A stretch of DNA of 64,000 bases, taken from Eubacteriales bacterium. GTDB taxonomy: Bacteria > Bacillota > Clostridia > Lachnospirales > Lachnospiraceae. Location of the stretch: positions 4,932 through 68,931 of the forward strand of contig JAUNCG010000004.1 of the NCBI GenBank assembly GCA_030526715.1. The letters run 5' to 3'. Under the pieces are notes generated by a model. It did not search any database. It saw only the letters and a list, made by a program, of their open reading frames with translations, and was not told the DNA's origin. The first letter of the stretch is position 1. The number at the start of each line of letters is the position of its first letter. The translations under genes were made by a program, and so were the position numbers. Positions 4,966 to 58,446 of this stretch are shown here, one piece after another.

Positions 4966-5094
4966 AAATCATTTTGCTCTATAGAGGTATCTGTGTTATG
5001 ATGAGTGTCAGAATAATCTGGCACTCATTTTTTGTGAAAAGGAGTGTCTGCAAGGCAGGTGTTTTGCCTGTCAGATTTTATGAGGTGATAATGT

Positions 5095-14007: not shown

Positions 14008-14543
14008 TAGATTTGGAAAAGATAATGGAGTTGGCAAAAAAACAGGGATTTTCTGAGGTCGGCGCTCTGGACTGCGCCACCATTGAGCTGCTGCCCGAGG
14101 TACGCAGCATGTGTGAACAGAATACCTGTCACAGATTCGGAAATTGCTGGAGCTGTCCGCCCGGCTGCGGCACTCTGGAGGAATGCGAAGAAAAGCTTCG
14201 CGGTTTTCGCCGCGGAATTCTGGTGCAAACGGTCGGTGAGCTGGAGGACGAGCTGGACGGGGAAGCCATGATGGAGACGGAGGCGAAGCATAAAAAGAAT
14301 TTTTATGCTTTTGCGGAAACGCTGCGGAAGCAGTATCCGGGGATGCTTGCAGTTGGCGCAGGAAGCTGTAACATCTGTAAGGAGTGTACCTACCCGGAGG
14401 AGCCCTGCCGTTTTCCGGATAAGGCGGTGGTATCCATGGAAGCCTACGGGATGCTGGTGACGCAGGTCTGTCAGGCAAATGGGATAAAGTATTATCACGG
14501 TCCCTGTACGATTGCATATACGAGCTGTTATCTCTTGGAGTAA
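14004..14543 (+). CDS. DUF2284-type predicted metal-binding protein
   Basis: 179 aa and Cys-rich (CHRFGNCWSCPPGCG, CNICKEC). ATGA start/stop overlap with the activase gene. Confidence 0.6.
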   Translation: MIDLEKIMELAKKQGFSEVGALDCATIELLPEVRSMCEQNTCHRFGNCWSCPPGCGTLEECEEKLRGFRRGILVQTVGELEDELDGEAMMETEAKHKKNFYAFAETLRKQYPGMLAVGAGSCNICKECTYPEEPCRFPDKAVVSMEAYGMLVTQVCQANGIKYYHGPCTIAYTSCYLLE

Positions 14544-14553
14544 TCGGGAGAAC

Positions 14554-14583
14554 TTGACACGCTTAGAGCGGACAACTTATAAT
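14554..14583 (+). promoter_or_regulatory. sigma-A-type promoter upstream of the corrinoid protein gene
   Basis: TTGACA (14554-14559), 18-nt spacer, TATAAT (14578-14583). Confidence 0.5.
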
Positions 14584-14618
14584 AAGATATAATTACTTGC
14601 ACGGAAGGAAGAAACACG

Positions 14619-15254
14619 GTGACGATACTGGAGAAACTGCGTACAGCGATCGAGGAAGGATATCCGGGGGATATGGAGCGTCTGGTGAAGGAGGCGCTGG
14701 ATATGCCGATAGAGCCCATGAGGATTGTGGAGGAGGCGATGATGCCGGCTATGCAGTCCGTGGGGGAAGAATATAAGAATCAGGATGCAGATATTCTGCG
14801 CATACTGGCGGCGGCACGCTGTATTCGGAAGGGATTTGAGGTGTTGGAGGAGCATGCGGAGGACTTCGAGCGCAGTAGTATCGGGACGGTGATCGTAGGA
14901 ACTGTGGAAGGAGATCTGCATGATGTAGGGAAGAATCTCGTGGCGATCATGTTCCGCAGCGCGGGCTTTCGGGTGATCGACTTGGGAGTAGACATTTCAG
15001 AGAAGCAGTTCTTAAAGGCAGTGCGTGAGACACCGGAGGTCTCTATTGTATGTATTTCCTCACTGCTTACCACCTCCATCACGGAGATGCAGCAGGTCGT
15101 AAGATCGCTTCGCCGCAACGATCCTGAGAAAAAGTATAAGATCATGGTAGGTGGCGGTGCGGTTACCAGACAGCTTGCGGAGAGCATGGGGGCAGACGCT
15201 TACACGGAGAACTGCGTGGAGGCTGCGGAGGTCGCCAAGACATTTATGGTATAG
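14619..15254 (+). CDS. cobalamin-binding corrinoid protein (MtbC/MttC/MtaC-like)
   Basis: 211 aa. N-terminal helical cap plus Rossmann B12-binding domain with the DxHxxG motif (DLHDVG, 14913-14930). GTG start. Confidence 0.85.
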   Translation: MTILEKLRTAIEEGYPGDMERLVKEALDMPIEPMRIVEEAMMPAMQSVGEEYKNQDADILRILAAARCIRKGFEVLEEHAEDFERSSIGTVIVGTVEGDLHDVGKNLVAIMFRSAGFRVIDLGVDISEKQFLKAVRETPEVSIVCISSLLTTSITEMQQVVRSLRRNDPEKKYKIMVGGGAVTRQLAESMGADAYTENCVEAAEVAKTFMV

Positions 15255-15300
15255 GCGGTGCGAAGAATGATCGTTTGTACAGAACTGGGAGGAACTGAGG

Positions 15301-16872
15301 ATGAAGCTTTCATCCGCTTATCTATATGAGCAGCTGAAAAAAGAATATGAGATTGCCGACAGCTATGGCATATCCGGGCGCGATGGATATCTGCGCCCGT
15401 TTTTATACAGAAAAAATACAGCAGATCAAAGAGGTGGGAGAGTCCATGGCCACATCTGTGTCGTTCCGCTTGAGGAGTATCCGGAGAGGGTCGAACCGGA
15501 TATATTTTATATTATATGCTGTCAGAAGGTGGATAACTCCTATATGAGAAATGACGGCATACTGGATGCGTGGGGAGAACAAAAGGAGCACCCCTGCCTT
15601 TATGTGCTGCAGAAGGAGGATTCGCCGGCGGATATCTTGAATTTGCTCCAACAGATCTATGATGACTGTGAGGCGTGGGATGAGCGGGTGGATGATCTGG
15701 TGATTGGCAATGCCGGGATGGATAAGGTGCTGCAGGAGATGGCGGAGTTTTTGGGGAATCCCGTGTTTGTGATGGGGCTGGATTTCTCTCTGAGTGCAGA
15801 GGCGGGGATGGAGAAGCTTCCGGATAAGGCAAGGCTTTTTACGGAAGACGGTCTGAATATGGAGTATATGAATGCGCTGGTACAAAGCAGCGCATATGAG
15901 ATGCTGGTCAAAGAGAAGCATACAGTGCTTTATCGGGATCACAGCAGCGGACTTCGTACCTTGAACCGTAACTTGATGACAGATGGACAGCCCACTCACA
16001 GAGTGGTTATGACGGAGGGGGATACAGAGCTCACGCCGGGGAAGATCTGTCTGATGGAGGCAGTGGTGAGCAGGCTGGAGTATCTGGTTTCCCATGAGAA
16101 TGCAAATTCAAAGGCGGGAACCTTGGAGCAGATTTTTCAAAAGCTCCTGACAGACCGTACGGCAGATTATGTGCAGGTGAGTCGTCAGCTCTCCGCAGCG
16201 GGCTGGGGAAAAAACCACAGATATCAGTGTCTGCTTCTGCAGATCACGTATTTGAATCAGAAGCTCCTTTCGACGAAGGCGATCTGCCGTTATATTCAAA
16301 AGCAGCTTCCGGATTCCATCAGTTTTTTCTATCAGGATGAGGTAGTCACATATTTTAACCTGACGCGTCTGGAGCTGACGGAGGAGGAAGTGGCGGCCAA
16401 GATGGTCTACTTTATCCGCGACAGTTATCTGAAGGCGGGCTACAGCCGGGTGATGCAGGGGCATATGAACCTTCGAAGGCAGTATGTGCAGGCGAGGACG
16501 GCCATCGATGTGGGAGGAAGAAAGAAGCCGTATCTGTGGATACATCACTTTAATCAGGTGGCTATGCCCTATATTATGGAGCAGATCACGAGAAGGCTGC
16601 CGGGAAGCATGCTCTGCCATGAAGGTTTGCTGCGGCTGCAGCGCTCGGACAGGGAGAACCGTACGGAATATGTGCGTACCCTGAAGGTATATCTGGATCA
16701 GCATCTGAATGCTTCGCAGACGGCTAACGTGCTGTTTATTCATCGAAGCACGTTTTTGTATCGTATGGAGAAGATCCGGGAGATCCTGCAGTCGGAGATG
16801 GACGATCCGGAGGAAATCTTTTATCTGGAATTGTCGATGCGGCTGCTGGAGCAGGAGGAAGAGAAGAACTAG
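15301..16872 (+). CDS. PucR-family transcriptional regulator
   Basis: 523 aa. C-terminal PucR-type HTH: LNASQTANVLFIHRSTFLYRMEKIREIL. Confidence 0.7.
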   Translation: MKLSSAYLYEQLKKEYEIADSYGISGRDGYLRPFLYRKNTADQRGGRVHGHICVVPLEEYPERVEPDIFYIICCQKVDNSYMRNDGILDAWGEQKEHPCLYVLQKEDSPADILNLLQQIYDDCEAWDERVDDLVIGNAGMDKVLQEMAEFLGNPVFVMGLDFSLSAEAGMEKLPDKARLFTEDGLNMEYMNALVQSSAYEMLVKEKHTVLYRDHSSGLRTLNRNLMTDGQPTHRVVMTEGDTELTPGKICLMEAVVSRLEYLVSHENANSKAGTLEQIFQKLLTDRTADYVQVSRQLSAAGWGKNHRYQCLLLQITYLNQKLLSTKAICRYIQKQLPDSISFFYQDEVVTYFNLTRLELTEEEVAAKMVYFIRDSYLKAGYSRVMQGHMNLRRQYVQARTAIDVGGRKKPYLWIHHFNQVAMPYIMEQITRRLPGSMLCHEGLLRLQRSDRENRTEYVRTLKVYLDQHLNASQTANVLFIHRSTFLYRMEKIREILQSEMDDPEEIFYLELSMRLLEQEEEKN

Positions 16873-28151: not shown

Positions 28152-28247
28152 TTAGATGAACCGAATCAAGTAAGTTCCCCGCTTCAAATGCAAAGAGCAT
28201 TAAGCGGTGGGGGACTTCTGGAAGGAATACCGAGGGAGGAAGAGAGT

Positions 28248-28868
28248 ATGGGAGATGTATTAGTAATCGGAATTGCCGGGGGGACCGGCAGCGGAAAGAC
28301 GACGCTGACCAATCAGATCGCAGCGCAGCTCAAAGAAAATGTGACGGTGGTGAAGCATGACAACTACTATAAAGCACATGATGATATGACCTATGAGGAG
28401 CGTGTGACGCTGAATTATGACCATCCGAATGCCTTTGACACAGATCTGCTGATTGAGCATCTGGGCAGATTGAAGTCAGGAGAGGCTGTGGAATGTCCGG
28501 TTTATGATTTTAAAGTACATAATCGCAGCAAGAACACGATCACGATCGTACCGGGACGAGTGGTGATTGTGGAAGGTATTCTGATCTTTGAAAATCCAGA
28601 GCTCTGCGACATGATGGATATCCGCATTTTCGTGGATGCGGATGCGGATCTTCGCATTATCCGCAGAATCCAGCGCGATGTTATGGAGCGCGCCCGCAGT
28701 CTGGATTCGGTGATCAGTCAGTATCTGAACACGGTCAAGCCTATGCACGAGCAGTTTGTGGAGCCCAGCAAGAAAAACGCAAATATTATCGTGCCGGAGG
28801 GTGGTCATAATCATGTGGCGATGGAGATGATCCGCAACCATATTCAGAGCTATCTGAACGAGCAGTAA
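28248..28868 (+). CDS. udk: uridine kinase
   Basis: VIGIAGGTGSGKTT P-loop, with NYDHPNAFD and VIVEGIL motifs. Confidence 0.9.
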   Translation: MGDVLVIGIAGGTGSGKTTLTNQIAAQLKENVTVVKHDNYYKAHDDMTYEERVTLNYDHPNAFDTDLLIEHLGRLKSGEAVECPVYDFKVHNRSKNTITIVPGRVVIVEGILIFENPELCDMMDIRIFVDADADLRIIRRIQRDVMERARSLDSVISQYLNTVKPMHEQFVEPSKKNANIIVPEGGHNHVAMEMIRNHIQSYLNEQ

Positions 28869-29015
28869 AAGCTGTCAAATGAAAAATACAAATAACACAC
28901 GCGAAAAAATATTAGAAAATCCTAAAAGAAAGACTTCAAAAATGGCAGAAGATTTGTTAGAATAGGAAAAGAAATTCAATATGCCGCTTCGGCGGTCAAA
29001 TAGGGAGGAATTCAA

Positions 29016-30038
29016 ATGAAGAAGAGTGTAATCGTAACGGCTGCTACTGTTGCAGCACTGTCACTGGCAGCACTTGGCAGCACAGTATCTGCGGAAGATG
29101 TGAAGGTCGGTATCGTAACTGATGTCGGTGGTGTAAACGATGGTTCCTTTAACCAGTCTGCATGGGAAGGTCTGCAGAGAGCGCAGGATGAGCTCGGTAT
29201 CACAGCAAGCTATCTTGAGTCTGCTACAGATGCTGACTATATCCCGAATATCGAGACATTTGTAGATGAGGATTATGACATGATCATCTGCATCGGCTAT
29301 CAGCTGGCAGACGCTCTGCGTCAGGAGGCTGAGGCAAATCCGGATGTGAACTTTGCAATCGTTGATGATTCCACCAATGCGGATCTGGACAATGTTACCT
29401 GCCTGATGTTTGAACAGGCTCAGGCTTCCTATCTGGTTGGTTATGTAGCAGGTCTGGCTACAGAGAGCAATACCATCGGCTTCGTACTGGGTATGTCTAC
29501 AGATACCATGAACGAGTTCGGATATGGCTATTGCGCCGGCGCTCTGGATGCAAATCCGGATGTAAAGATCCTTCAGGCAAATGCAAACAGCTTCGCAGAT
29601 ACCGCAGCAGGTAAGACCGCAGCGAACAACATGATCGCTGACGGCGCTGACGTTATCTTCCATGCAGCAGGCGGTACAGGCCTTGGCGTGATCGATGCCT
29701 GCAAGGAGGCTGGTATCTGGGCAATCGGTGTGGACTCTGACCAGAGCCCGATCGCTCCGGAGACCATTCTTACTTCTGCTATGAAGCGTGTAGATAACTC
29801 TGTATATGATACAGCAAAGGCTGTTGTAGACGGCAATCTTGAGGCAGGCGTGAAGAGCTTCTCTCTTGAGGACGCAGGTGTAGATCTGGCTCCGACTACA
29901 GACAATCTGACAGATGAGATCCTGACCAAGGTAAACGAGGTGAAGGATCAGATCATCGCAGGTGAGGTTGTGGTTCCGAAGGATAAGGAGTCCTTTGAGG
30001 CAGCTCACGGCGAGGGTATCTACCAGTTAGCTGAATAA
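29016..30038 (+). CDS. BMP-family (Med/PnrA/NupN-like) ABC transporter nucleoside-binding protein
   Basis: Signal peptide followed by KVGIVTDVGGVNDGSFNQSAWEGL, the hallmark of the BMP family. Confidence 0.9.
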   Translation: MKKSVIVTAATVAALSLAALGSTVSAEDVKVGIVTDVGGVNDGSFNQSAWEGLQRAQDELGITASYLESATDADYIPNIETFVDEDYDMIICIGYQLADALRQEAEANPDVNFAIVDDSTNADLDNVTCLMFEQAQASYLVGYVAGLATESNTIGFVLGMSTDTMNEFGYGYCAGALDANPDVKILQANANSFADTAAGKTAANNMIADGADVIFHAAGGTGLGVIDACKEAGIWAIGVDSDQSPIAPETILTSAMKRVDNSVYDTAKAVVDGNLEAGVKSFSLEDAGVDLAPTTDNLTDEILTKVNEVKDQIIAGEVVVPKDKESFEAAHGEGIYQLAE

Positions 30039-30056
30039 TAGAGACTTACATGAGAT

Positions 30057-30084
30057 GGGCAGAGCGGATGCTCTGCCCGTTTAT
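30057..30084 (+). terminator. hairpin after the binding-protein gene (weak or partial terminator)
   Basis: GGGCAGAGC / GCTCTGCCC stem with a 4-nt loop. The tail is a poor U-tract (GTTTAT). Confidence 0.4.
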
Positions 30085-30230
30085 CATATGAACGTGTTTG
30101 CAGAGCGGAATTGCTTTTACACAGGAGATGTGCGCGGATTTGCTGTGTGGGAGCAAGGAATCCTGTCCGGGATCGGGGGATTTTCTATGAAAGAGATTTC
30201 GGACAGCCACAGAGGTAAATGGAGGAACAA

Positions 30231-31775
30231 ATGAGAGAGATTACGATGGAACGTGTGAATCAGGTGCGGGATGAGATTCTGGAGACAGTGAAGAGCGCGA
30301 CCCTTACACACGAACAAAAAGTAGCGGCATTGGCAAATAAGGCCGATTCTCTGATGGAAGTACTGAAGCTTCCCGAGGGTCTGGATGAGCTGATGAATCA
30401 GCCGATTGAGACAAAGTGTATCTGTGATCTGAGCGAAGGACGGGCACCGCTTCGTCCGCGTTATATTATCCCGGATTATGCAAAGTTTATGAGAGAGGGA
30501 AGTAAGTTTCTGCAGCTGGATCCGCCGAAGGATCTGTTTGAGGCGCTGAATTCTCTGTTGATCTTTTATAAGCATGTACCCAGTGTGACCAATTTCCCGG
30601 TATATCTTGGCGCATTGGATGAGCTGCTGGAGCCGTTTATTGACGATGTGGATGAGGCTATGGCGAAGAAGCTGCTGAAGCTTTTCATGATCCATATAGA
30701 TCGCACGATTCTGGACTCTTTTTCTCATGCGAATATAGGCCCAAAGGCGACGAAGGCCGGCCGGCTGCTGCTTGAGGTGGAGGCGGAGCTGGAGAACGCG
30801 GTTCCGAATCTGACTATGAAGTATGATGCGAGCATTACGCCGGATGATTTTGCGCTTCAGTGCGTGAAGACCGCGCTGAAGAGTGCGAAGCCGAGCTTTG
30901 CCAATCACGCAATGTTCAGCTCTGAGCTGACGGAAAATTATGTGATCGCCAGCTGCTACAACGGATTGAAGCTGGGAGGCGGTTCTTATACGCTTTGCCG
31001 TATGATCCTTGGAAATATCGCCAAGAGATCTGAGAATCTGGAGGACTTTAGGAAGAATCAGCTGCCCTATGTCATGCAGACGATGGCAGAGTATATGGAT
31101 GAGCGTATCCGCTTTGAGGTAGAAGAGAGCGGATTCTTCGAGCATAATTTCCTTGCTCGAGAGGGATTTATCCACAGAGATCAGTTCAGCGCCATGTTTG
31201 GAATGGTAGGCTTGGCGGAATGTGTGAATATCCTGATGGAGAAGGAGGGCAGAGCCGGAAGATTCGGACACAGCGAGGAGGCAGATCAGCTGGGTGTGAG
31301 TATCATGGAGCAGATCGATGAGTTTAACCGCAATCATGTGAACCCGTATTGTGAGGCTACCGGCGGACATTTTCTTCTGCATGCGCAGGTAGGGATCTCT
31401 GAGGATATCGAGATCTCTCCGGGAACCAGAATCCCGATCGGAGAAGAGCCGGATGAGCTGATCGATCATCTGAAGAACTGTGCAAAGTTTCACAAGTATT
31501 TTCCGTCCGGAACCGGGGATATCTTCCCCATCGATGTAACGGTACATCGCAATCCGGAGTTTGTATTAGATATCATCAAAGGCGCTTTTTCTGAGAATCT
31601 CCGCTATCTGTCCTTTTACTCATCCGACAGTGATGTGATAAGGATCACAGGCTATCTGGTGAAGCGCTCGGAGATCGAAAAACTGGAGAGCGGACAGGCG
31701 GTACTGCAGGATACCACCGCGCTCGGAATGGGAGCAAAGCAAAATGGCAAGATCCTTCAGCGAAAGGTGCGCTAA
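30231..31775 (+). CDS. yjjI: YjjI-family glycyl radical enzyme (DUF3029; reaction unknown)
   Basis: About 514 aa. C-terminal glycyl-radical fingerprint VIRITGYLV (Gly codon 31650-31652). The size and N-terminal sequence resemble E. coli YjjI. A cognate activase gene overlaps the 3' end. The ATG at 30231 follows GGAGGA; an alternative ATG lies at 30219. Confidence 0.75.
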   Translation: MREITMERVNQVRDEILETVKSATLTHEQKVAALANKADSLMEVLKLPEGLDELMNQPIETKCICDLSEGRAPLRPRYIIPDYAKFMREGSKFLQLDPPKDLFEALNSLLIFYKHVPSVTNFPVYLGALDELLEPFIDDVDEAMAKKLLKLFMIHIDRTILDSFSHANIGPKATKAGRLLLEVEAELENAVPNLTMKYDASITPDDFALQCVKTALKSAKPSFANHAMFSSELTENYVIASCYNGLKLGGGSYTLCRMILGNIAKRSENLEDFRKNQLPYVMQTMAEYMDERIRFEVEESGFFEHNFLAREGFIHRDQFSAMFGMVGLAECVNILMEKEGRAGRFGHSEEADQLGVSIMEQIDEFNRNHVNPYCEATGGHFLLHAQVGISEDIEISPGTRIPIGEEPDELIDHLKNCAKFHKYFPSGTGDIFPIDVTVHRNPEFVLDIIKGAFSENLRYLSFYSSDSDVIRITGYLVKRSEIEKLESGQAVLQDTTALGMGAKQNGKILQRKVR

Positions 31776-32610
31776 AGCGCCGGTCAACAAGATCATCCCG
31801 TTTAGTTCGGTGGATGGTCCCGGGAATCGGACGGCGGTGTTTCTGCAGGGATGTAATTTTGACTGCAGATATTGCCATAATCCGGAGACCAGAAGGCTGT
31901 GTATCGCCTGCGGAGATTGTGTGGATCGCTGTCCGGCGAAGGCGCTCAGGCTGCAGGCGGGAGAAGTGCTGTTTGATCCTGCAAAATGCTGTGGCTGCGA
32001 TACATGCATCAGAACCTGTACATATGACAGCAGTCCCCGTATTCGATGGATGGATGCACAGGAGACCTTTGCGGAGGTGAAAAAACAGATGCCCTATATC
32101 CGCGGCGTGACGGTGTCTGGCGGTGAGTGTACGCTGTATCCGCAGTTTCTGAAGGAATTGTTTGCGCTATGCCATGACGCGGGACTGAGTACGCTGATCG
32201 ACAGCAACGGGACACTGGACTTTCGCGCGCATCCCGAACTTCTGGCGCAGACGGACGGAGTTATGCTGGATATCAAGGCGTGGAGCAGAGAGGATCATGA
32301 GAGGGTTACGGGCAGCGACAACGAGCTCGTCCTGAGAAACGCGGTATATCTGGCGGAGCGCGGGCAGTTGACAGAGGTGCGCACGGTGATCGTTCCGGAG
32401 CTGTTTGACACGGCCGGTACGGTGGAGGAGACGGCAAAGCTGCTGGCGCCTTACCGGACTAGGGGAGAGATAAGATATAAGCTGATCACCTACCGTCCGA
32501 TGGGAGTCAGAGAACAATATGCACATAGTCGTGTACCGCAAAATGAGGAGATGGAGAAACTGCGGGCGATTGCGATCACACAGGGCCTGAAGGACGTAGT
32601 GATCGTCTGA
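31744..32610 (+). CDS. yjjW: YjjW-family glycyl-radical enzyme activating protein (radical SAM)
   Basis: CNFDCRYC (CX3CX2C, 31852-31875). Ferredoxin-like inserts CIACGDCVDRC and CCGCDTCIRTC. A GGEC motif. Overlaps yjjI by 32 nt. Confidence 0.8.
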   Translation: MARSFSERCAKAPVNKIIPFSSVDGPGNRTAVFLQGCNFDCRYCHNPETRRLCIACGDCVDRCPAKALRLQAGEVLFDPAKCCGCDTCIRTCTYDSSPRIRWMDAQETFAEVKKQMPYIRGVTVSGGECTLYPQFLKELFALCHDAGLSTLIDSNGTLDFRAHPELLAQTDGVMLDIKAWSREDHERVTGSDNELVLRNAVYLAERGQLTEVRTVIVPELFDTAGTVEETAKLLAPYRTRGEIRYKLITYRPMGVREQYAHSRVPQNEEMEKLRAIAITQGLKDVVIV

Positions 32611-32640
32611 GTATGCAGGATATAAGAAGGAGGAAAGACA

Positions 32641-34185
32641 GTGGCGAAGCAAAGTAATGTGGATACGAGCAGCGTTGTTATTCGCATGAAGGATATCGTA
32701 AAGACGTTCGGTTCCTTTGTAGCAAATGATCATATCAACCTGACGGTTCACAAGGGAGAGGTACATGCTATTCTCGGTGAGAATGGCGCGGGTAAGAGTA
32801 CATTGATGAACGTACTTTACGGATTATATCATCCAACGTCCGGAAGTATTGAGATCAACGGGAATGAGGTGCGGATCGACAGCCCGCAGAAGGCGATTGA
32901 GCTGGGTATCGGTATGGTTCACCAGCATTTTATGCTGGTACAGCCCTTTACGGTGACGGAGAATATTATTCTCGGTACGGAACCGACCAAGGGGATGGTG
33001 GTAGATACGAAGAAGGCTCGTGAAAAGATCGTGGAGCTGTCTGAGCGATATAATCTGAAGGTGGATCCGGATGCGAAGATCGAGGATATCTCTGTAGGTA
33101 TGCAGCAGCGCGTAGAGATCCTGAAGGTATTGTATCGTAATGCTGAGCATCTGATTCTGGATGAGCCGACGGCTTCTCTGACCCCGCAGGAGATCACAGA
33201 GCTGATCGATATTATCCATCACCTGACCGCCGACGGCAAATCGGTCATCCTGATCACCCATAAGCTGAAGGAGATCAAGGCGGCGGCAGATTTCTGTACC
33301 ATTATTCGCCGCGGTAAATATATCAACACCGTGAAGGTCAGCGAGTGCGATGAAAATCAGCTTGCGGCCATGATGGTAGGAAGAGATGTAGAATTTAAGG
33401 TAGAGAAAAAGGAGATGAATCCGGGCGAGGTGGTTCTGGATGTGAGGGAGCTTCGCGCAAAGGACTATCGCCATGTGGAGATCCTGAAGGGTCTGAATCT
33501 GTCCGTGCGCCGGGGCGAGATTGTTGGTCTGGCAGGCGTGGACGGCAACGGTCAGTCCGAGCTGGTAGAGATTATCACGGGGCTGCGCAAAGCGGAGTCC
33601 GGTGAGATCACCATGCATGGCGAGAGCATTTATAATACTACACCGAAGCAGGCCTTTGAGAAGGGCGTGACCAGTATTCCGGAGGATCGCCAGAAGCATG
33701 GACTGGTACTGGACTTCTCCGTTTCGGAGAATCTGATCCTGCAGAACTTTGCCAAGGCGCCATATGCGAAGCATGGTATTTTGCAGAAGAACGCGATCGA
33801 ACAGCATGCTACGGAGATGATCGAGAAGTTTGATATTCGCCCGTCTGGCTGCAATCAGCGTCTGGCAGGCGAGCTCTCCGGCGGTAACCAGCAGAAGGTT
33901 ATCATTGCGCGAGAGGTGACCAATGATTCGGATTTGCTGATCGCAGTGAACCCGACCCGCGGACTTGATGTGGGAGCGATTGAATTTGTCCACAAATATC
34001 TGGTAGAGCAGCGTAATAAGAACAAAGCGATCCTTCTGGTATCCTTTGAGCTGGATGAGATCATGAGCCTGTCCGACAGAATTGAGGTCATCTTTGACGG
34101 TCAGATCGTGGGAAGCGTGGCTGGCAAGGGCGCGGATGAGAAGGAATTAGGATTTATGATGGCGGGAGGTGTGAAGCATGAATAA
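32641..34185 (+). CDS. nucleoside-type ABC transporter ATP-binding protein (tandem ATPase; NupO/RnsB-like)
   Basis: 514 aa with two ABC cassettes (GENGAGKST, LSVGMQQRVEIL, LSGGNQQKV). GTG start after AGGAGG. Confidence 0.9.
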   Translation: MAKQSNVDTSSVVIRMKDIVKTFGSFVANDHINLTVHKGEVHAILGENGAGKSTLMNVLYGLYHPTSGSIEINGNEVRIDSPQKAIELGIGMVHQHFMLVQPFTVTENIILGTEPTKGMVVDTKKAREKIVELSERYNLKVDPDAKIEDISVGMQQRVEILKVLYRNAEHLILDEPTASLTPQEITELIDIIHHLTADGKSVILITHKLKEIKAAADFCTIIRRGKYINTVKVSECDENQLAAMMVGRDVEFKVEKKEMNPGEVVLDVRELRAKDYRHVEILKGLNLSVRRGEIVGLAGVDGNGQSELVEIITGLRKAESGEITMHGESIYNTTPKQAFEKGVTSIPEDRQKHGLVLDFSVSENLILQNFAKAPYAKHGILQKNAIEQHATEMIEKFDIRPSGCNQRLAGELSGGNQQKVIIAREVTNDSDLLIAVNPTRGLDVGAIEFVHKYLVEQRNKNKAILLVSFELDEIMSLSDRIEVIFDGQIVGSVAGKGADEKELGFMMAGGVKHE

Positions 34186-35257
34186 GAAAAAGGGAATTCT
34201 GAACAGCAATGCGCTTTATACCTTTATTGCGATCAGTGTGGGCTTCCTTGTGGGAGCAATTCTTCTGATGCTTGCGGGTATCAGCCCGGCGGAGGCTTAC
34301 GGGAAGCTGATCACCGGCGTATTCGGTAAGCCGAAGTTCGTGACATGGAGCATCGTATATGCGGCTCCGCTGATCCTGACCGGCCTGAGCGTGGCATTTT
34401 CCTTCCGTACAGGCGTATTTAATATCGGTGCGGAGGGACAGTTTGTAGTCGGCTCTCTGGCAGCCTGTGTGGTCGGTATTCTGGTAAAGGCTCCGGCACC
34501 GATCCATATTTTACTGTGTATCGTAGCAGCTATGGCGGCGGGAGCGCTCTGGGGCGCTATCGTGGGCTTACTCAAGGTAATGCGCGGTGTGAACGAGGTG
34601 CTTTCCTATATCATGTTCAACTGGATCGCATTCTATTTATCCAACTATGTAGTGAATCTTGCGATCATCCACAGAGAGGGCGGCGGCGAGGCTACCAAGG
34701 ATGTGGCGGATACGGCACGTATCATGGCACCGAAGGCGATCGTGGAGCTGACGAGCTGTACAGCGGCCAACTGGGGCATCGTGATGGCGATTGCCGCGGC
34801 CGTGGTGATCTGGTTCATTATTTCCAAGACGACGCTGGGTTATCAGCTTCGCTCTGTCGGATTCAGCAGGACTGCAGCAGAGTATGCGGGTATTAACACG
34901 AACAGGATGTTTCTTACTGCGATGGCGATCTCAGGCGCTATGGCCGGACTTGGCGGAGCGGTGCAGACGCTGGGAATGTCCGGACGTATCAGTCAGTTCA
35001 GCAGTCAGGAGCAGTTCGGCTTTCAGGGCATTACGGTAGCGCTGATCGGTTCCTCCAATCCGATCGGATGTATTTTTGCGGGACTGTTTTACGGCGCTAT
35101 GAAATATGGCGGCACAAAGCTCAGTCTGGTAAATGCGCCGTCAGAGGTAGTAGATATCATCATGGGTACGATCATCATTTTCATCGCAGTATCCCATGTA
35201 TTTAAGATGCTTGTACTTGAAAAAGCAGGAAAGAAGAAAGGAGGAGCACAGGCATGA
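34178..35257 (+). CDS. ABC transporter permease (NupP/RnsC-like)
   Basis: 359 aa, polytopic, with an FNIGAEGQF motif. Overlaps the ATPase gene by 8 nt. Confidence 0.85.
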   Translation: MNKKKGILNSNALYTFIAISVGFLVGAILLMLAGISPAEAYGKLITGVFGKPKFVTWSIVYAAPLILTGLSVAFSFRTGVFNIGAEGQFVVGSLAACVVGILVKAPAPIHILLCIVAAMAAGALWGAIVGLLKVMRGVNEVLSYIMFNWIAFYLSNYVVNLAIIHREGGGEATKDVADTARIMAPKAIVELTSCTAANWGIVMAIAAAVVIWFIISKTTLGYQLRSVGFSRTAAEYAGINTNRMFLTAMAISGAMAGLGGAVQTLGMSGRISQFSSQEQFGFQGITVALIGSSNPIGCIFAGLFYGAMKYGGTKLSLVNAPSEVVDIIMGTIIIFIAVSHVFKMLVLEKAGKKKGGAQA

Positions 35258-36189
35258 ATGTACTTATCAAAGATCTTGGACTCTTGATCAATGCGATGCT
35301 GATCGCAACCCCTCCGCTGCTGTTTGCAGCTCTCGGATCCTGTTTTTCGGAGCGAAGCGGAGTTGTCAATATCGGAATTGAGGGTATGATGACCATCGGT
35401 GCATTCACCGGTGCGGTGGTAGCGTATTTTACAGGCAACGGCTGGCTGGGCTTCCTGTGCGGCGGCCTTGCAGGAGCGGCTTTTGGACTGCTTCATGCCG
35501 TGGCATGTATTTCCTATGGCGCAGATCAGACGATCTCAGGCACAGCCATCAATTTTCTGGCTCCGGGACTGGCCGTATTTCTGTGCAAAGCGCTGTTTGA
35601 AAATTCCTCAGATTCTCCGGCACTGGACACGGCTGCAAAGCTTCCGAAGATGTTCAACGGCGTTTTTAAGGCAGGCTCCTTCGGCTATAATGTTCTGAAT
35701 ACTTATCCGGTGGCCTATCTGTGCTTTGTACTGGTGCTGGTCGTATGGTTTGTATTCTATAAGACAAAATTCGGCATGCGTCTGCGTGCGGTGGGCGAGC
35801 ATCCGCAGGCATGCGCGACGCTGGGTATCAACGTATTCCGTATTCGCTATATCTGCGTGATCGTATCCGGCTTCCTTGCGGGGCTCGGCGGTGCGTACGT
35901 GACACTGTCTACCGTAAGCCAGTTCCGCCCGAGTGTGATCGTGGGACAGGGCTTTATCGCAATCGCAGCGGTAATCTTCGGTAACTTTAAGCCACAGGGC
36001 GCCATGAAGGCGTGTTTGCTGTTCGGATTGTGCAACGGTGTGAAGGCGCTGCTTGGTTCGGGCAATGTGGTTTCTCCGCATCTGATCTCCATGATCCCGT
36101 ATCTGGTGACGATTCTGGCTCTGGTGTTCTTTGTAGGGGCTTCCAGAGTACCTGCGGCGAATGGTAAGCCGTTCCTGAAAGCAAAATAA
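35254..36189 (+). CDS. ABC transporter permease (NupQ/RnsD-like)
   Basis: 311 aa, polytopic, with a VNIGIEGMM motif. ATGA overlap with the preceding gene. Confidence 0.85.
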   Translation: MNVLIKDLGLLINAMLIATPPLLFAALGSCFSERSGVVNIGIEGMMTIGAFTGAVVAYFTGNGWLGFLCGGLAGAAFGLLHAVACISYGADQTISGTAINFLAPGLAVFLCKALFENSSDSPALDTAAKLPKMFNGVFKAGSFGYNVLNTYPVAYLCFVLVLVVWFVFYKTKFGMRLRAVGEHPQACATLGINVFRIRYICVIVSGFLAGLGGAYVTLSTVSQFRPSVIVGQGFIAIAAVIFGNFKPQGAMKACLLFGLCNGVKALLGSGNVVSPHLISMIPYLVTILALVFFVGASRVPAANGKPFLKAK

Positions 36190-36201
36190 TGTGTATAAGT
36201 G

Positions 36202-36240
36202 AGCCGGGGTATGGCAGATACCCCGGCTTATCATTTTTTT
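36202..36240 (+). terminator. Rho-independent terminator ending the nucleoside transporter operon
   Basis: AGCCGGGGTAT / ATACCCCGGCT stem followed by TATCATTTTTTT. Confidence 0.8.
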
Positions 36241-36277
36241 CGATAAGGAAATTGTAAAAAACTGAAGCCGTTCTGCA

Positions 36278-36355: not shown

Positions 36356-37153
36356 ATGATGAAGATGAGAAATGTACTGATGCTTACTGCAGCCGCAGCG
36401 ATTGCATGCTCCGCTCTGACGGTAAACGCAGAGGATGCCAAGACATGGGTAGTTGCTACGGATACCGTATTCCGTCCGTTTGAGTACACGGATGAGAACG
36501 GTGACTTTGTCGGAATTGATGTGGATATTCTGGCTGCTATCGCAGAGGATCAGGGATTCGAATATGAGCTGAACAGCCTTGGCTGGGATGCGGCTATCGC
36601 AGCGTGTCAGGCAGGTCAGGCAGACGGTATGATCGCCGGCGCTTCCATTACGGATGAGAGAAAAGAGAGCGGATGGATCTTCTCCGATGGCTACTATGAT
36701 GCTACGCAGACCATGACGGTAAAGGAGAATTCCGATATCGCAGGCTTTGAGGATCTTGAGGGTAAGATGGTAGGCGTTAAGACCGGTACGCAGGGAGCTG
36801 CATATGCGGAGAGCCTGAAGGATGAGTATAAGTTTGATATCACCTATTTCGAGGATTCACCGACGATGTATCAGGCGGTTGACGGTGGTCAGGTAGTAGC
36901 ATGCTTTGAGGATACGCCGATCATGCTGGATTCCATCAAGCAGAACGGTCTTGCGCTGAAGGTTCTTGAGGATACAGCGAATGACGGAGCGCCGTATGGC
37001 TTTGCTGTATTTACAGAGGATAGTCAGGAGCTTGTAGATATGTTCAATGCCGGTCTGGAGAACATCAAGAAGAACGGCACCTATGATGAGATCATCGAGA
37101 AGTATCTTGGCGCAGCGGATGCAGAGGCAGAGAGTGAGACAGAGGCAGAGTAA
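36356..37153 (+). CDS. amino acid ABC transporter substrate-binding protein (family 3)
   Basis: Signal peptide, then ATDTVFRPFEY, GIDVDIL and DGMIAGASIT motifs. Confidence 0.85.
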   Translation: MMKMRNVLMLTAAAAIACSALTVNAEDAKTWVVATDTVFRPFEYTDENGDFVGIDVDILAAIAEDQGFEYELNSLGWDAAIAACQAGQADGMIAGASITDERKESGWIFSDGYYDATQTMTVKENSDIAGFEDLEGKMVGVKTGTQGAAYAESLKDEYKFDITYFEDSPTMYQAVDGGQVVACFEDTPIMLDSIKQNGLALKVLEDTANDGAPYGFAVFTEDSQELVDMFNAGLENIKKNGTYDEIIEKYLGAADAEAESETEAE

Positions 37154-37225
37154 GACGCAGGAAGCTGCGACTAAGACTGCTTTGCCGGATCGACGGTGAT
37201 CCGGGAATGAGTAATTGCTGATCAA

Positions 37226-37260
37226 GGGGCACTGAATGAGAGTTTCAGCGCCCCGTTTTG
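37226..37260 (+). terminator. intra-operon hairpin/attenuator after the binding-protein gene
   Basis: GGGGCACTGAA / TTCAGCGCCCC stem (one mismatch) followed by GTTTTG. Confidence 0.45.
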
Positions 37261-37320
37261 TAATGTATATCTAAGAAACAGAAAAGAGAGGAATCTGATA
37301 TCTGTTGAAAGGAGTTATGG

Positions 37321-37989
37321 ATGGCTTTAATATTGACAAAGTACGGAGGACTGCTTCTGCAGGCGATGGGGCAGACGTTGCTGTTGGCTCTGTGGGGACT
37401 GTTTTTTGCGTGTATCCTCGGTATGATTCTGGGATTGATGAGCGTGGTTCGCAACACGGTATGCAACATCATTGCGATGATATTTGTAGATGCGATCCGC
37501 AGTGTTCCCATGATCGTGCTTGCATATTTTATTTTCTTTGGCGTGCCCTACGCGTTAAACAACATGATGGGGATGTCCTTTACGCTGACAGCTCTGCAGG
37601 CAGGTACGGTTGCGCTGGCACTGAACTGCGGCGCATATATGGCGGAGATCATCCGTGCGGGTATCCAGTCTGTGGACAAGGGACAGATGGAAGCGGCGAG
37701 AAGCCTTGGCCTGCCCTACTGGCGCGCGATGCAGAGAGTAGTACTGCCTCAGGCGATCCGTACCATGATCCCAAGTATCGTGAACCAGTTTATCATCACG
37801 CTCAAGGATACCTCGATCCTGTCGGTCATCGGTTTCCCCGAGCTGGTAAATACTGCGAAGAACGTCATTGCGAATACCTTTAAATCCTTTCAGGTATGGG
37901 CGATCGTCGCAGTGATGTATATGATCATTATTCTCACCTTGTCCAAGCTGGCGAAGGTGCTGGAGAGGAGGCTGAACCGTGGCCGCTAA
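37321..37989 (+). CDS. amino acid ABC transporter permease (His/Glu/Gln/Arg/opine family)
   Basis: 222 aa with the EAA loop: [23 protein letters not shown]. Confidence 0.9.
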
Positions 37990-38725
37990 TAAGGAAAAAG
38001 TGAAAATCCATGTTTCTCATCTGAAAAAAAGCTTTGGTAAACTGGAGGTTTTGAAGGATATTTCCACAGATATCTATGAGGGAGAAGTGGTGGTAATACT
38101 GGGACCCTCCGGCAGCGGAAAATCTACATTTCTGCGCTGCCTGAATCAGCTGGAGGAGATCACGGCGGGCGACGCTGTGGTGGACGGAGTGAACGTCGCA
38201 CATAAGAATATCAATATCAACAAGGTGCGTGAGAACATCGGTATGGTATTCCAGCATTTCAATCTGTTCGGGAATATGAACGTGCTTCGAAATCTGATGC
38301 TTGCTCCGGTGGATCTGAAAAAGGCAGGCAAGGCAGAGGCGAAGGAGCAGGCTATGGCGATGCTTCGCAAGGTCGGCATGGAGGAAAAAGCGGAAGCCTA
38401 TCCGTCACAGCTCTCCGGCGGACAGAAGCAGCGCGTGGCGATCGCACGGGCGCTCTGCATGAAGCCGGATATCATGCTCTTTGACGAGCCGACCAGCGCG
38501 CTGGATCCGGAGATGGTAGGAGAGGTATTGCAGGTCATGAAGGATCTTGCGGCAGACGGCATGACGATGGTGATCGTGACCCATGAGATCGGATTTGCCC
38601 GTGAGGTGGCGGATCGCGTGATCTTTATGGACGGCGGCTATATCGTGGAGGAGGGGACACCGCAGGAGGTGATCCTGAATCCGAAAGAGCCGCGAACCAT
38701 AGATTTCCTGAACAAAGTATTGTAA
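37979..38725 (+). CDS. amino acid ABC transporter ATP-binding protein (GlnQ-like)
   Basis: Walker [10 protein letters not shown], signature [15 protein letters not shown], Walker [15 protein letters not shown] start that overlaps the permease gene. Confidence 0.9.
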
Positions 38726-38745: not shown

Positions 38746-39336
38746 ATGAAAAAGATAGTGACCATCAGCCGTCAGTTCGGAGCAGCCGGAGGAACCATCG
38801 GCTATGAGCTGGCCAGACGGCTTGGCTACGAGTATTATGATAAAGAGCTGGTGCTGATGCTGGCGGCTCGCAGTAACATTGACACCTACAGTCTGCTGAA
38901 GTGGGATGAGCATGTGCCGCTTCATTTTGGATTTGCCCAGACCCTGATGGATTTTTACAATCGTCCCATGAGTGACCGCATCTTTGCGGAGCAGACGGAA
39001 GTCATCCGTCAGGTGGCGGAAAAGGGCGACTGCGTGATCGTCGGAAGAAACGCAAACTCGGTGTTGAAGGAATATGACCACTGTCTGCATGTATTTATTC
39101 ATGCAGATACGGACTGGCGTGTGCGTCATATGAAGGAAAAGAAGATGGCTGAACAGTCGGAGGCTCAGATTCTGGACGAGCTGCGCAAGGTAGATAAGGC
39201 GAGAGCGAAGCACTGCGCCTACCATACCAATACGACCTTCGGAGATGCAAAGCATTATAATCTCTGTCTGGATTCTTCGAGGTTCGGAATCGAAAAAAGT
39301 ATAGACATTATTCAGAACATGCTGGAAGAGATCTAG
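38746..39336 (+). CDS. cytidylate kinase-like family protein
   Basis: 196 aa. The N-terminus IVTISRQFGAAGGTIG is typical of the Cytidylate_kin2 family. Confidence 0.65.
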   Translation: MKKIVTISRQFGAAGGTIGYELARRLGYEYYDKELVLMLAARSNIDTYSLLKWDEHVPLHFGFAQTLMDFYNRPMSDRIFAEQTEVIRQVAEKGDCVIVGRNANSVLKEYDHCLHVFIHADTDWRVRHMKEKKMAEQSEAQILDELRKVDKARAKHCAYHTNTTFGDAKHYNLCLDSSRFGIEKSIDIIQNMLEEI

Positions 39337-55045: not shown

Positions 55046-55819
55046 ATGCCGACAGGCGAGATTATGACAACAGAAGAGATTTTAACAAAAGTATCACGGC
55101 GGGAGCTCTCCGTGGAGGAGGCGCAGAAGCGGCTTCAGATACAGCCCTTTGACGATATGGGGTATGCGAAGATCGATTATCACCGGGAGGTTCGCACGGG
55201 TGTCCCGGAGGTGATCTATTGTGCCGGAAAGACTGCAGAGCAGATTGCGGGTATTGTGCAGAACATGCGCGCTCACGGTGGAAAACACATCCTCGGCACC
55301 CGCTGCGATGTGGAAAAATACAAGATTGTGAAGGAGACCTGTCCGGAGATTTCTTATGATGAAACGGCACGGATCCTGTTTTATCAGGAGGAAGAGTTTC
55401 CCCTGAACCGCGGGAAAATCGTGGTAGCCTGCGCAGGCACCTCGGATCTTCCGGTGGCGAAGGAAGCGGCTATGACAGCACAGTTTCTGGGAAATGAGGT
55501 AGTGGAGATCTATGATGTGGGAGTGGCGGGGATCCATCGGCTGCTGGCACAGATGGAGACGATGCAGCAGGCGAATGTGATCGTTGCGGTAGCAGGTATG
55601 GAGGGGGCGTTGGCTTCGGTAGTAGGCGGATTGACGGATAAGCCGGTAATCGCAGTGCCGACGTCCGTAGGCTACGGCGCGAGCTTCGGCGGTGTGACCG
55701 CGCTGCTTGCCATGCTGAACAGCTGTGCCAGCGGAGTCAGCGTTGTGAACATTGACAATGGATTCGGAGCCGGTTATATGGCGCATTCCATCAACTGCCT
55801 TGCGGGAAAAAGAGACTGA
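55046..55819 (+). CDS. larB: nickel-pincer cofactor biosynthesis protein LarB (PurE-like)
   Basis: AIR-carboxylase fold (VACAGTSDLPVAKEA, VAGMEGALASVVGG) plus an N-terminal helical extension. The start may instead be 55064. Confidence 0.85.
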   Translation: MPTGEIMTTEEILTKVSRRELSVEEAQKRLQIQPFDDMGYAKIDYHREVRTGVPEVIYCAGKTAEQIAGIVQNMRAHGGKHILGTRCDVEKYKIVKETCPEISYDETARILFYQEEEFPLNRGKIVVACAGTSDLPVAKEAAMTAQFLGNEVVEIYDVGVAGIHRLLAQMETMQQANVIVAVAGMEGALASVVGGLTDKPVIAVPTSVGYGASFGGVTALLAMLNSCASGVSVVNIDNGFGAGYMAHSINCLAGKRD

Positions 55820-55833
55820 TAGGAGTAAGACTT

Positions 55834-57627: not shown

Positions 57628-58446
57628 ATGTTATATGATAAGGTTCAGGAATCTGTAAGGTTTATTCAGGAGCGAATCACTCAGAAGCCGGAGATCGGAA
57701 TCATCCTCGGCAGCGGGTTGGGTGGTCTGGTGGATATCATGGAGGATAAGGAGATCGTGCCTTATGGCGAGATCCCGGGATTTCCAAAGTCCAATGTCGC
57801 CGGACATGCGGCGAAGCTGGTGATCGGAAAAATCGGCGGTCATGTCGTGGCGGCTATGCAGGGAAGATTCCATTTCTATGAGGGCTTCACCATGCGCGAG
57901 GTGACCTATCCGCTGTATGTGCTTCGGCAGCTGGGTGTGAAGGATCTGATCGTGACCAATGCCTGCGGCGCAGTGAATCGTGATTTTGAACCCGGAGATC
58001 TGATCCTGTTGAGCGATTACATCAACTTTACGGGACAGAATCCGTTGATCGGGGAAAATGATGAGCGCTTCGGCGTGCGGTTCCCGGATATGTCGGATGC
58101 ATACGCAAAGGAGCTGCGCGTCTTTGCGGGAGAGATTGCACAGAAGCTGGGATTCCAGCATAAAGAAGGCGTATATGCATTATTCCTCGGTCCGACCTAT
58201 GAGACGGCAGCAGAGATCCGTGCCTGCGCAGTTTACGGCGCCGATCTGGTAGGAATGTCCACGGTTCCGGAGACGATCGTAGCCAATTATCTCGGGATGC
58301 GTGTGCTGGGTATCGGCTGTGTAACCAATATGGCTACGGGAATCGCTACCGTAAAGCATACACATGAGCAGGTAGTGAAGGTGGCAAATGAGGCGAGCGA
58401 GAAGCTCTGCGGATGGGTGGCAGAGGTACTCCGTCAGTGGAAATAA
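57628..58446 (+). CDS. punA: purine nucleoside phosphorylase (trimeric PNP, PunA type)
   Basis: GIILGSGLGGL, GRFHFYEG, VTNACGAVN and GMSTVPE motifs. Confidence 0.9.
   Translation: MLYDKVQESVRFIQERITQKPEIGIILGSGLGGLVDIMEDKEIVPYGEIPGFPKSNVAGHAAKLVIGKIGGHVVAAMQGRFHFYEGFTMREVTYPLYVLRQLGVKDLIVTNACGAVNRDFEPGDLILLSDYINFTGQNPLIGENDERFGVRFPDMSDAYAKELRVFAGEIAQKLGFQHKEGVYALFLGPTYETAAEIRACAVYGADLVGMSTVPETIVANYLGMRVLGIGCVTNMATGIATVKHTHEQVVKVANEASEKLCGWVAEVLRQWK

Follow-up and report, generated by a model that had tools for sequence, protein, structure and literature searches.

A YjjI/YjjW glycyl radical enzyme pair within a predicted nucleoside importer operon of Lachnospiraceae, and its recurrent linkage to nucleoside genes

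Why should a glycyl radical enzyme be encoded in the middle of an ATP-binding cassette (ABC) importer operon, and on which compound might it act? The question is raised by a 64,000-nucleotide (nt) stretch of contig JAUNCG010000004.1 (positions 4,932 to 68,931; Eubacteriales bacterium, Lachnospiraceae; assembly GCA_030526715.1), called the window here. In it, yjjI and yjjW, encoding a glycyl radical enzyme and its radical S-adenosylmethionine (SAM) activase, stand between the binding protein gene of a BMP/PnrA-type importer and the genes for its ATPase and permeases. No function was assigned to YjjI in the searchable literature to August 2026; a preprint of that month termed it uncharacterized (bioRxiv 10.64898/2026.08.13.742689), and a June 2026 review of the glycyl radical superfamily does not include it. 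YjjI appears to be the last Escherichia coli glycyl radical enzyme without an assigned reaction. No paper tying YjjI to nucleosides, or describing a glycyl radical enzyme within a BMP importer operon, was found in the openly searchable literature. The proteins themselves belong to families that are already annotated; what is new is the architecture of the operon and a linkage to nucleoside genes that spans several lineages. On balance, we favor the reading that positions 28935-36241 form one anaerobic nucleoside-uptake operon, in which YjjI/YjjW would be an accessory module kept for nucleoside use.

Layout of the operon and its predicted importer

The features of the region are listed below. 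Coordinates are positions in the window, and all operon genes lie on the plus strand.

28188..28868, +, udk, uridine kinase (NF004018, 303 bits, cut-off 180; TIGR00235, 272 bits)
28935..28963, +, candidate operon promoter, TTCAAA-17-TAGAAT with extended -10 TG (consensus scan, 9/12 matches)
29016..30038, +, BMP/PnrA-family substrate-binding lipoprotein gene (PF02608 Bmp, 260 bits)
30057..30084, +, G+C-rich stem-loop 3' of the BMP gene, 9-bp stem GGGCAGAGC/GCTCTGCCC, T-poor tail GTTTATCAT
30111..30206, +, two further spacer hairpins (from the fold; not conserved in relatives)
30231..31775, +, yjjI, YjjI-family glycyl radical enzyme, 514 amino acids (aa) (TIGR04040, 716 bits; PF11230, 764 bits)
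31744..32610, +, yjjW, YjjW-family radical SAM activase (TIGR04041, 368 bits, cut-off 250)
32641..34185, +, tandem-domain ABC ATPase gene (two ABC_tran stretches)
34178..35257, +, permease 1 gene (BPD_transp_2), 8-nt overlap with the ATPase gene
35254..36189, +, permease 2 gene (BPD_transp_2), 4-nt overlap with permease 1
36199..36241, +, intrinsic terminator at the operon end, 14-bp stem with 7 G-C pairs, T-run tail CATTTTTTTC

The yjjI and yjjW genes overlap by 32 nt, and 30 nt separate yjjW from the ATPase gene. An initial annotation, made from the sequence alone, had described these genes with their overlaps, gaps, motifs and hairpin coordinates, and all of them were recovered by the open reading frame (ORF) map, hidden Markov model (HMM) searches, fold prediction and consensus scan. 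The longest yjjI ORF begins at 30219 (518 aa). A GGAGG ribosome-binding site fits the ATG at 30231, and a database protein (P0001) is identical to the 514-aa YjjI with that start, the 518-aa form having no exact match; the start at 30231 chosen in the initial annotation is therefore right. The initial annotation had also treated the radical enzyme pair as, in effect, a component of the transporter operon, and this view is supported: the genes are co-directional and tightly packed, the consensus scan gave no promoter-like site in the BMP-yjjI spacer, and 42 other loci keep the same order. The only strong terminator of the operon found by the consensus scan is at 36199-36241. The candidate promoter lies 53 nt 5' of the BMP start codon, and the evidence for it was graded weak. 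Upstream, udk is probably a separate transcription unit, with no terminator separating it from the BMP operon; it adjoins that operon in 5 of the 80 related loci described below.

The hairpin behind the BMP gene is probably an intra-operon mRNA stabilizer or a partial terminator. Its T-poor tail makes "weak terminator" a fair label, and the predicted fold lengthens its stem to about 13 pairs. The spacer as a whole (30036-30235) folded at -69 kcal/mol (z = -5.0 against shuffled controls). The hairpin sequence is retained in the closest relative (L003), and it is the only spacer hairpin that the two loci have in common. Among 31 embedded loci with a spacer of at least 80 nt, about two thirds have a strong hairpin near the stop codon of the substrate-binding protein (SBP) gene, as judged from folds, and the sequences of these hairpins are not conserved. 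Hairpins in this position in ABC operons commonly raise the stability of SBP mRNA relative to that of downstream genes. The consensus scan found no sigma-70-like promoter in the BMP-yjjI spacer, and Rfam gave no match there at the gathering or a permissive threshold. A riboswitch or other conserved cis-acting RNA was considered and rejected in view of the missing Rfam match, the variable spacer length (34-419 nt between tblastn match ends) and the unconserved sequences.

The importer has the components of the BMP/PnrA type in one operon, namely, a PF02608 protein, a tandem ABC ATPase and two BPD_transp_2 permeases. The BMP protein was closest to Lbp of Clostridium thermocellum (PDB 7X0R; 460 bits, 66.6% identity over 314 residues). 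According to the Lbp paper, the protein was crystallized with an endogenous ligand whose clear density was fitted by guanosine and not laminaribiose, and a transporter-L mutant still grew on laminaribiose (PMC9601137). The legend of Figure 1 in the same source names "hp" and "rsam" genes in the C. thermocellum transporter clusters, so that a similar insertion, on which the paper does not comment, may be present there. The next-best structures were PnrA/TmpC, pneumococcal PnrA and Borrelia BmpD, with Treponema pallidum PnrA/TmpC (2FQW) scoring 175 bits. The best NCBIfam match, a "putative B6" transporter model, scored 117 bits, far under its cut-off of 400. Because the BMP protein is closest to the guanosine-bound Lbp and then to known nucleoside receptors, the importer is very probably a nucleoside importer, and its binding protein, to judge from these similarities, probably binds purine, and perhaps other, nucleosides.

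Gene neighborhoods of yjjI-yjjW across lineages

Related loci were collected by a pattern scan with one genome per GTDB species, which gave 594 YjjI loci, and the closest 80 of these were kept. Neighbors were counted by tblastn of reference proteins on those 80 loci, and deaminase and regulator families were identified separately. Gene calling by longest ORF was misled by antisense ORFs, which hid punA and, in several loci, yjjI, and tblastn mapping was used for the counts. In the window, such ORFs on the minus strand lie over yjjI (30117-31547, 476 aa), the BMP gene (29061-30008, 315 aa) and the ATPase gene (32824-33993, 389 aa). Similar ones recur in the window, where GC skew is steady at about +0.2 and most genes are on the plus strand, and they appear to be a side effect of sequence composition.

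At least one nucleoside gene stood beside yjjI in 52 of the 80 loci. The neighbors were BMP (50 loci), the ABC ATPase (49), cytidine deaminase (cdd, 26), DeoD-type purine nucleoside phosphorylase (PNP, 23), DeoC (17), adenosine deaminase (add, 16), DeoB (15), a Crp/Fnr regulator (11) and Udk (5), and PunA-type PNPs were present in five additional loci. The order BMP-YjjI-YjjW-ABC-permease-permease was exactly that of the window in 42 loci. Cultured relatives with the embedded order include Lachnoanaerobaculum gingivalis, L. sanguinis and Butyrivibrio sp. NC3005. In 43 related loci yjjW is followed by the ATPase gene, the matched segments being a median of 50 nt apart, and the BMP-YjjI distance between matched segments fell to 34 nt in some loci; these short distances support co-transcription. 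YjjI is widespread in gut Lachnospiraceae, Enterobacterales, Pasteurellaceae and Vibrionaceae.

In the YjjI tree, all linked Clostridia loci fell in one clade with at least 68% identity to the YjjI of the window, so that a single event in an ancestor is the most plausible account of the embedding in Clostridia. Among the members of the clade are Dorea, Roseburia, Lachnoanaerobaculum, Butyrivibrio, Oribacterium, Blautia, Enterocloster, Agathobacter and Anaerosporobacter, together with metagenome-assembled genomes of Thermoclostridium and Acutalibacteraceae. Three rearranged loci (L024, L029 and L030) have the order Crp/Fnr-DeoD-YjjI-YjjW, and a fourth (L065) has BMP-ABC-permease-permease-YjjI-YjjW-DeoD-DeoC-Cdd. 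The flanking catabolic genes are shuffled across the clade and the core order is intact. The retention of deoD in the rearranged loci and the intact core amid shuffled flanks point to selection rather than inertia.

Outside the Clostridia, yjjW-yjjI of E. coli is divergent from deoCABD, with 257 bp between the two start codons. This adjacency, which the initial annotation had pointed out and which seeded the idea, is visible on the gene map, and the same divergent arrangement was found in Kosakonia and Edwardsiella. Edwardsiella also carries a NupC-family (PF01773) nucleoside transporter gene directly after yjjW. In Haemophilus influenzae, the YjjI gene, a radical SAM gene and a NupC/NupG transporter gene lie in one 3.1-kb region (PMC5609409), HI0521 being the YjjI homolog and HI0520 the YjjW homolog (PMC3877243). 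A metagenome scan seeded with an Actinomycetota-type YjjI gave 80 high-GC loci (64% G+C). In six of them (L117-L122), an Add-Cdd-permease-permease-ABC-BMP operon is divergent from yjjI-yjjW, with gaps of approximately 250-320 bp and a BMP protein only about 41% identical to that of the window, and in another (L154) a more distant BMP gene lies upstream of yjjIW in the same direction. In all, yjjIW has genes for nucleoside uptake or catabolism as neighbors in at least three lineages that are deep and separate from one another; the gene orders differ, and the linked transporters belong to two non-homologous families, BMP-ABC and NupC. A rough estimate of the probability that at least 4 of about 40 context classes are linked by chance was P ~7e-4, on our own assumptions that about 1% of genomic positions flank nucleoside genes and that the roughly 40 context classes are independent. 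The neighborhood test that the initial annotation had proposed was thus positive, though not universally so, and the outcome it had named as refuting, a lack of nucleoside-gene enrichment around yjjI homologs in other genomes, was not seen. Its suggestion of an imported nucleoside, or the base or sugar of one, as a possible target of YjjI gains support as a hypothesis from this multi-lineage linkage.

Several observations weigh against a nucleoside role. The linked Clostridia loci, as one clade, count as a single evolutionary event. Within that group, the L050-L056/L068 sub-clade has moved yjjIW beside rlmH and a LysR gene, and L006, L007, L009 and L010 have yjjI beside an alpha-amylase gene. 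In a further 15 Clostridia-type loci (53-59% identity), no nucleoside gene is adjacent; the neighbors there include M19 dipeptidase, patatin, DAO oxidoreductase, DUF4130, DUF2334, LysR, YebC, NadE, and MFS and SBF transporters. Proteus has smp-serB-radA synteny near yjjIW, but no deo operon is present there. Apart from the linked lineages, about 25 sequence-defined lineages or contexts carry the pair free-standing. It stands alone in Vibrio jasicida, Ferrimonas, Proteus, Carboxydothermus and Anoxybacter and in two uncultured lineages and a Vibrionaceae-like genome (Pfam-annotated contigs), as well as in about 66 of the 80 high-GC loci, of which many are on short contigs. On the structural side, the lead of the class III ribonucleotide reductase (RNR) NrdD over other glycyl radical enzymes as the closest fold to YjjI is slight (E of 1e-15 vs 3e-14 and weaker). 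Finally, a 2011 co-expression study pointed to nitrate or nitrogen metabolism for yjjI (PMC3228777).

These observations bear on the idea that yjjIW is a self-contained passenger cassette, inserted once at the SBP/ATPase junction, which gained only anaerobic expression there and has no link with nucleosides. In its favor, the linked Clostridia loci form a single clade from which some members later escaped, most other lineages carry a free-standing pair beside varied neighbors, and the yjjI-yjjW overlap shows that the two genes move as a unit. However, the linkage arises again in Enterobacterales/Pasteurellaceae and in a high-GC lineage, with other gene orders and another transporter family, and the rearranged Clostridia loci are still beside deoD. 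Moreover, an inert insert would have polar, costly effects if placed between the SBP and ATPase genes, and this one nonetheless persists down to about 68% YjjI identity. We consequently judge the cassette idea unlikely, and the free-standing pairs leave room for it.

The other rival suggested by these data places YjjI in nitrogen-oxide or nitrate-linked, or other general anaerobic, metabolism and treats its nucleoside neighbors as incidental. In expression data, yjjI co-clusters with narG, and FNR and NarP motifs have been described (PMC3228777); FNR directly activates E. coli yjjI (PMC3688515), and the free-standing yjjIW pairs of Vibrio, L092, Holtiella and the L050 group have LysR-type regulators next to them. 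FNR control, however, shows only anaerobic use, which is true of every glycyl radical enzyme, and nitrogen-metabolism genes adjoin yjjIW in 0 of the approximately 170 loci examined. This explanation is therefore considered very unlikely.

The loci contained further features near the pair. No yjjW was found within the fetched locus (up to 10 kb on each side) in L006, L007 and L009, three Lachnospiraceae genomes with yjjI near 10000 or 3414 and 81% identity of YjjI to its counterpart in the window, and the same is true of a distant lineage (L088, 7001-8593); the activase for these loci must be encoded elsewhere or shared. A TatD-family hydrolase gene (YjjV homolog, 34-35% identity) lies near yjjIW in Enterobacterales and Lachnoanaerobaculum. 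The TatD-family sites recorded were L022, L027 and L080 (~4440-5210), L002 (7482-8261), L091 (10968-11759) and L093 (9375-10157). A patatin-like gene of the yjjU type is also near the pair in Enterobacterales and in Clostridium sp. K13 (L069, 13903-14865). LysR-type genes directly beside free-standing yjjIW (L083, 10469-11425; L092, 9466-10362; L073, 9033-9923; L068, 7188-8096) occur in Vibrio, the Vibrionaceae-like genome, Holtiella and one Lachnospiraceae sub-clade. In a high-GC sub-group (L167, L170, L171 and relatives), yjjI-yjjW directly follows a PhoR/PhoP-like kinase/response regulator pair. That regulator pair lies about 1-2 kb upstream of yjjI and adjoins phoU and a pst-like ABC transporter, a hint that control may be tied to phosphate. 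In Carboxydothermus ferrireducens (L086), an HD-domain phosphohydrolase gene (6277-6966) ends 35 nt before yjjI on the same strand and may be another nucleotide-related neighbor. In addition, a 574-aa database protein (P0336) joins residues 1-110 of E. coli DeoC to YjjI from about residue 53. We rejected it as a YjjI-DeoC Rosetta-stone fusion, since it is a single 2.9-kb record and the divergent deoC and yjjI genes would need an inversion; it is probably an assembly or laboratory artifact.

Features of YjjI and YjjW and the proposed reaction

Membership of both proteins in their families, proposed in the initial annotation, was confirmed by HMM. YjjI scored 716 bits with TIGR04040 (cut-off 498) and 764 bits with PF11230, formerly named DUF3029, over profile positions 1-485 of 485, and YjjW scored 368 bits with TIGR04041. 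The glycyl site of YjjI is G474 in VIRITG474Y, within the motif R-[VI]-[TS]-G-[YF], and the single conserved catalytic cysteine is Cys242 in the loop A-S-C242-Y-N. Among 46 diverse homologs, S241, C242 and N244 of the loop and R471 and G474 of the glycyl site are invariant, as are E69, R77, Y78, D82, Y83, H166, K220, R257, R292, E311, H384, Q386, D392, R400 and N441; C242 is the only invariant cysteine. A radical probe labeled Gly465 of YjjI in living E. coli (bioRxiv 10.64898/2026.08.13.742689). Among 1.84 billion representative proteins, YjjI forms about 22 full-length clusters at 50% identity and is thus a compact family. YjjW carries the motif CNFDCRYC (CX3CX2C) and the ferredoxin-like motifs CIACGDCVDRCP and CCGCDTCIRTC. 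After its own family, its next-best HMMs were activases of the hydroxyproline dehydratase, PflC and CutC types, and it scored 47 bits with the NrdG model (cut-off 126). The yjjW gene lies immediately downstream of yjjI in the window, and it follows yjjI in 72 of the 80 genome loci.

A profile search of PDB sequences gave marginal matches only. It aligned YGIASCYN of YjjI with YAIACCVS of pyruvate formate-lyase (PFL), placing S241-C242 opposite C418-C419, and LVRVTGYLV of YjjI with LQRITGYLV of NrdD. The AlphaFold2 model of YjjI (pLDDT 93.1, pTM 0.91) has the ten-stranded alpha/beta barrel, closest to that of NrdD. In Foldseek, ranks 1-8 were class III RNR chains (E 1e-15 to 3e-14, TM 0.62-0.74), from Prevotella copri and Streptococcus thermophilus, and those of phage T4 and Thermotoga maritima stood lower in the list.

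We nevertheless rejected YjjI as a bona fide class III RNR, since it has no Cys175 equivalent and no Zn site, its HMM score is below threshold, and its activase is of the wrong type. The PF13597 (NRDD) score was 23.8 bits, below the gathering threshold of 26.2, and covered residues 198-371 only. By hhalign (probability 89.8%), the invariant RPRY-IIPDY of YjjI stands opposite PMFNC175MLIDL, the Cys175 strand of NrdD, with no cysteine there in YjjI. In NrdD, Cys175 (the second active-site cysteine) and the loop residue Met382 are needed for formate-dependent reduction. No cysteine for a C-terminal Zn site was found in YjjI after residue 414 of 514, that is, in the last 100 residues. The cysteine loops also differ. 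PFL has an adjacent Cys-Cys pair, the eliminases and decarboxylases have C-x-E with a general-base glutamate, and NrdD has M-G-C-R. In YjjI, S241-C242 takes the place of the pair, and in place of C-x-E the loop reads C242-Y243-N244 with N244 invariant. To our knowledge, the S-C-Y-N loop matches no characterized glycyl radical enzyme class, and its difference from the C-C and C-x-E loops points to a reaction type not yet described in the superfamily.

The following course of events is consistent with these features. The yjjIW pair would have been inserted a single time, in the ancestry of a large Clostridia clade, and retained through a role in nucleoside use. The resulting operon would consist of promoter, BMP gene, stabilizing hairpin, yjjI-yjjW, tandem ATPase, two permeases and terminator, and one transcript starting at the BMP promoter would continue past the post-SBP hairpin to cover yjjI-yjjW and the genes of the membrane components, as the layout suggests. 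Production of the importer would in this way always bring production of the enzyme with it, and the cargo of the importer would serve as substrate. YjjW-type activases install the glycyl radical using SAM, and YjjW, with SAM and its [4Fe-4S] clusters, would place it on Gly474. Transfer from Gly474 to Cys242 would give a thiyl radical that takes hydrogen from the imported nucleoside or a close derivative, most likely from the ribosyl moiety, as in NrdD. Because YjjI has neither a second redox cysteine nor a general-base glutamate after the catalytic cysteine, the reaction would probably not be ribonucleotide reduction but a rearrangement or the non-reductive cleavage of a C-O or C-N bond.

Both the identity of the substrate and the type of reaction are inferred here. 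The main alternative to the nucleoside itself is a pentose phosphate derived from it (ribose-1-phosphate, ribose-5-phosphate or deoxyribose-5-phosphate), which would make YjjI an anaerobic branch of the deo pathway. PNP, deoB and deoC are among the neighbors, and the E. coli yjjI control region is common with deoC and contains a CRP site (PMC4287617). The many invariant arginines and lysines (R77, K220, R257, R292, R400, R471 and R511) would suit an anionic substrate, and PDB entries for the former orphans PflD and YbiW contain sugar-phosphate ligands or are named as dehydratases. On the other hand, a phosphorylase or mutase is not always present, with only cdd and add in L117-L122 and only nupC in Haemophilus. 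The neighbor common across lineages is instead a transporter (BMP-ABC or NupC), and for this reason we favor the nucleoside itself and regard the pentose phosphate as a lesser, though serious, possibility. The free-standing pairs are compatible with either substrate, because nucleosides and pentose phosphates are universal internal metabolites.

A bolder proposal, which we offer as speculation that is doubtful but worth stating, is that YjjI founds a new reaction class in which a minimal RNR-like barrel carries out non-reductive radical chemistry on unphosphorylated nucleosides. Examples may be abstraction of the 3'-H with subsequent loss of the 2'-OH, or breakage of the C-N glycosidic bond. 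If true, anaerobes would gain a previously unrecognized route of nucleoside breakdown or interconversion coupled to uptake. A nucleoside role of YjjI in general, if confirmed, would mean a new radical reaction in the nucleoside metabolism of the anaerobic gut and a second use of the RNR scaffold. The recurrent, independent linkage to nucleoside uptake leaves about a dozen compounds, all on sale, to be considered as substrates, where before there was no such limit.

Other genes of the window and comparison with known systems

Elsewhere in the window, the following features were recorded.

12277-16872, +, RACo-type corrinoid activase (PF14574/PF17651), B12-binding protein and PucR-family regulator genes together
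36356-38725, glutamine-type ABC transporter, between the operon and the next gene
38746-39336, +, cytidylate-kinase-like gene (PF13189, 159 bits), 2.5 kb downstream of the operon
55046-57171, +, LarB-type AIR-carboxylase-like gene (PF00731) and LarC nickel-insertion gene (PF01969, 452 bits), upstream of punA
57071-57583, 170-aa ORF between the larC-like gene and punA
57628..58446, punA (320 bits to the PNP structure 8SWU)

The initial annotation had mentioned both udk and punA. The position of udk immediately upstream of the operon was verified, as was the presence of punA in the window; however, punA lies 21 kb from the operon and was rejected as supporting linkage. A homolog of the cytidylate-kinase-like gene stands directly upstream of the BMP gene in L041. 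The larB/larC-like genes suggest synthesis of a nickel-pincer cofactor, and the cluster at 12277-16872 is probably a corrinoid methyltransferase system.

Next, the locus was compared with known systems. The closest studied pair is E. coli YjjI/YjjW (b4380/b4379), with 42% identity for YjjI and 41% for YjjW, both above the curated cut-offs. It shares with the window the gene overlap, the glycyl motif, the S-C-Y-N loop and adjoining nucleoside genes, whereas it forms its own unit divergent from deoCABD and the window pair is embedded in a BMP-type ABC importer operon. PnrABCDE of T. pallidum, NupNOPQ of Bacillus subtilis, RnsBACD of Streptococcus mutans, BmpD of Borrelia and the C. thermocellum Lbp system share with the window four components and their order, namely, a BMP lipoprotein, a tandem ATPase and two BPD_transp_2 permeases. 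In the window a radical enzyme pair lies between the SBP and ATPase genes, and we know of no enzyme genes at that place in the model BMP importer systems.

Among glycyl radical enzymes, NrdD resembles YjjI as the closest solved fold, in its R-I/V-T-G-Y-L glycyl motif and in its small size for such an enzyme, and its substrates carry ribose. The two proteins differ in sequence (11-14% identity), in that YjjI is without the ATP cone and the C-terminal Zn site, and in the cysteine loop (M-G-C-R in NrdD, A-S-C-Y-N in YjjI). Their activases differ as well, because YjjW, in common with the PflC and CutD types and in contrast to NrdG, has two auxiliary clusters. The activases of PflD, YbiW, CutC and HypD likewise have two auxiliary clusters. 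These eliminases, at 750-850 aa, are much larger than the 514-aa YjjI; as glycyl radical 1,2-eliminases encoded beside the transporter of their substrate, they provide a precedent for reading the substrate of an orphan glycyl radical enzyme from neighboring uptake genes.

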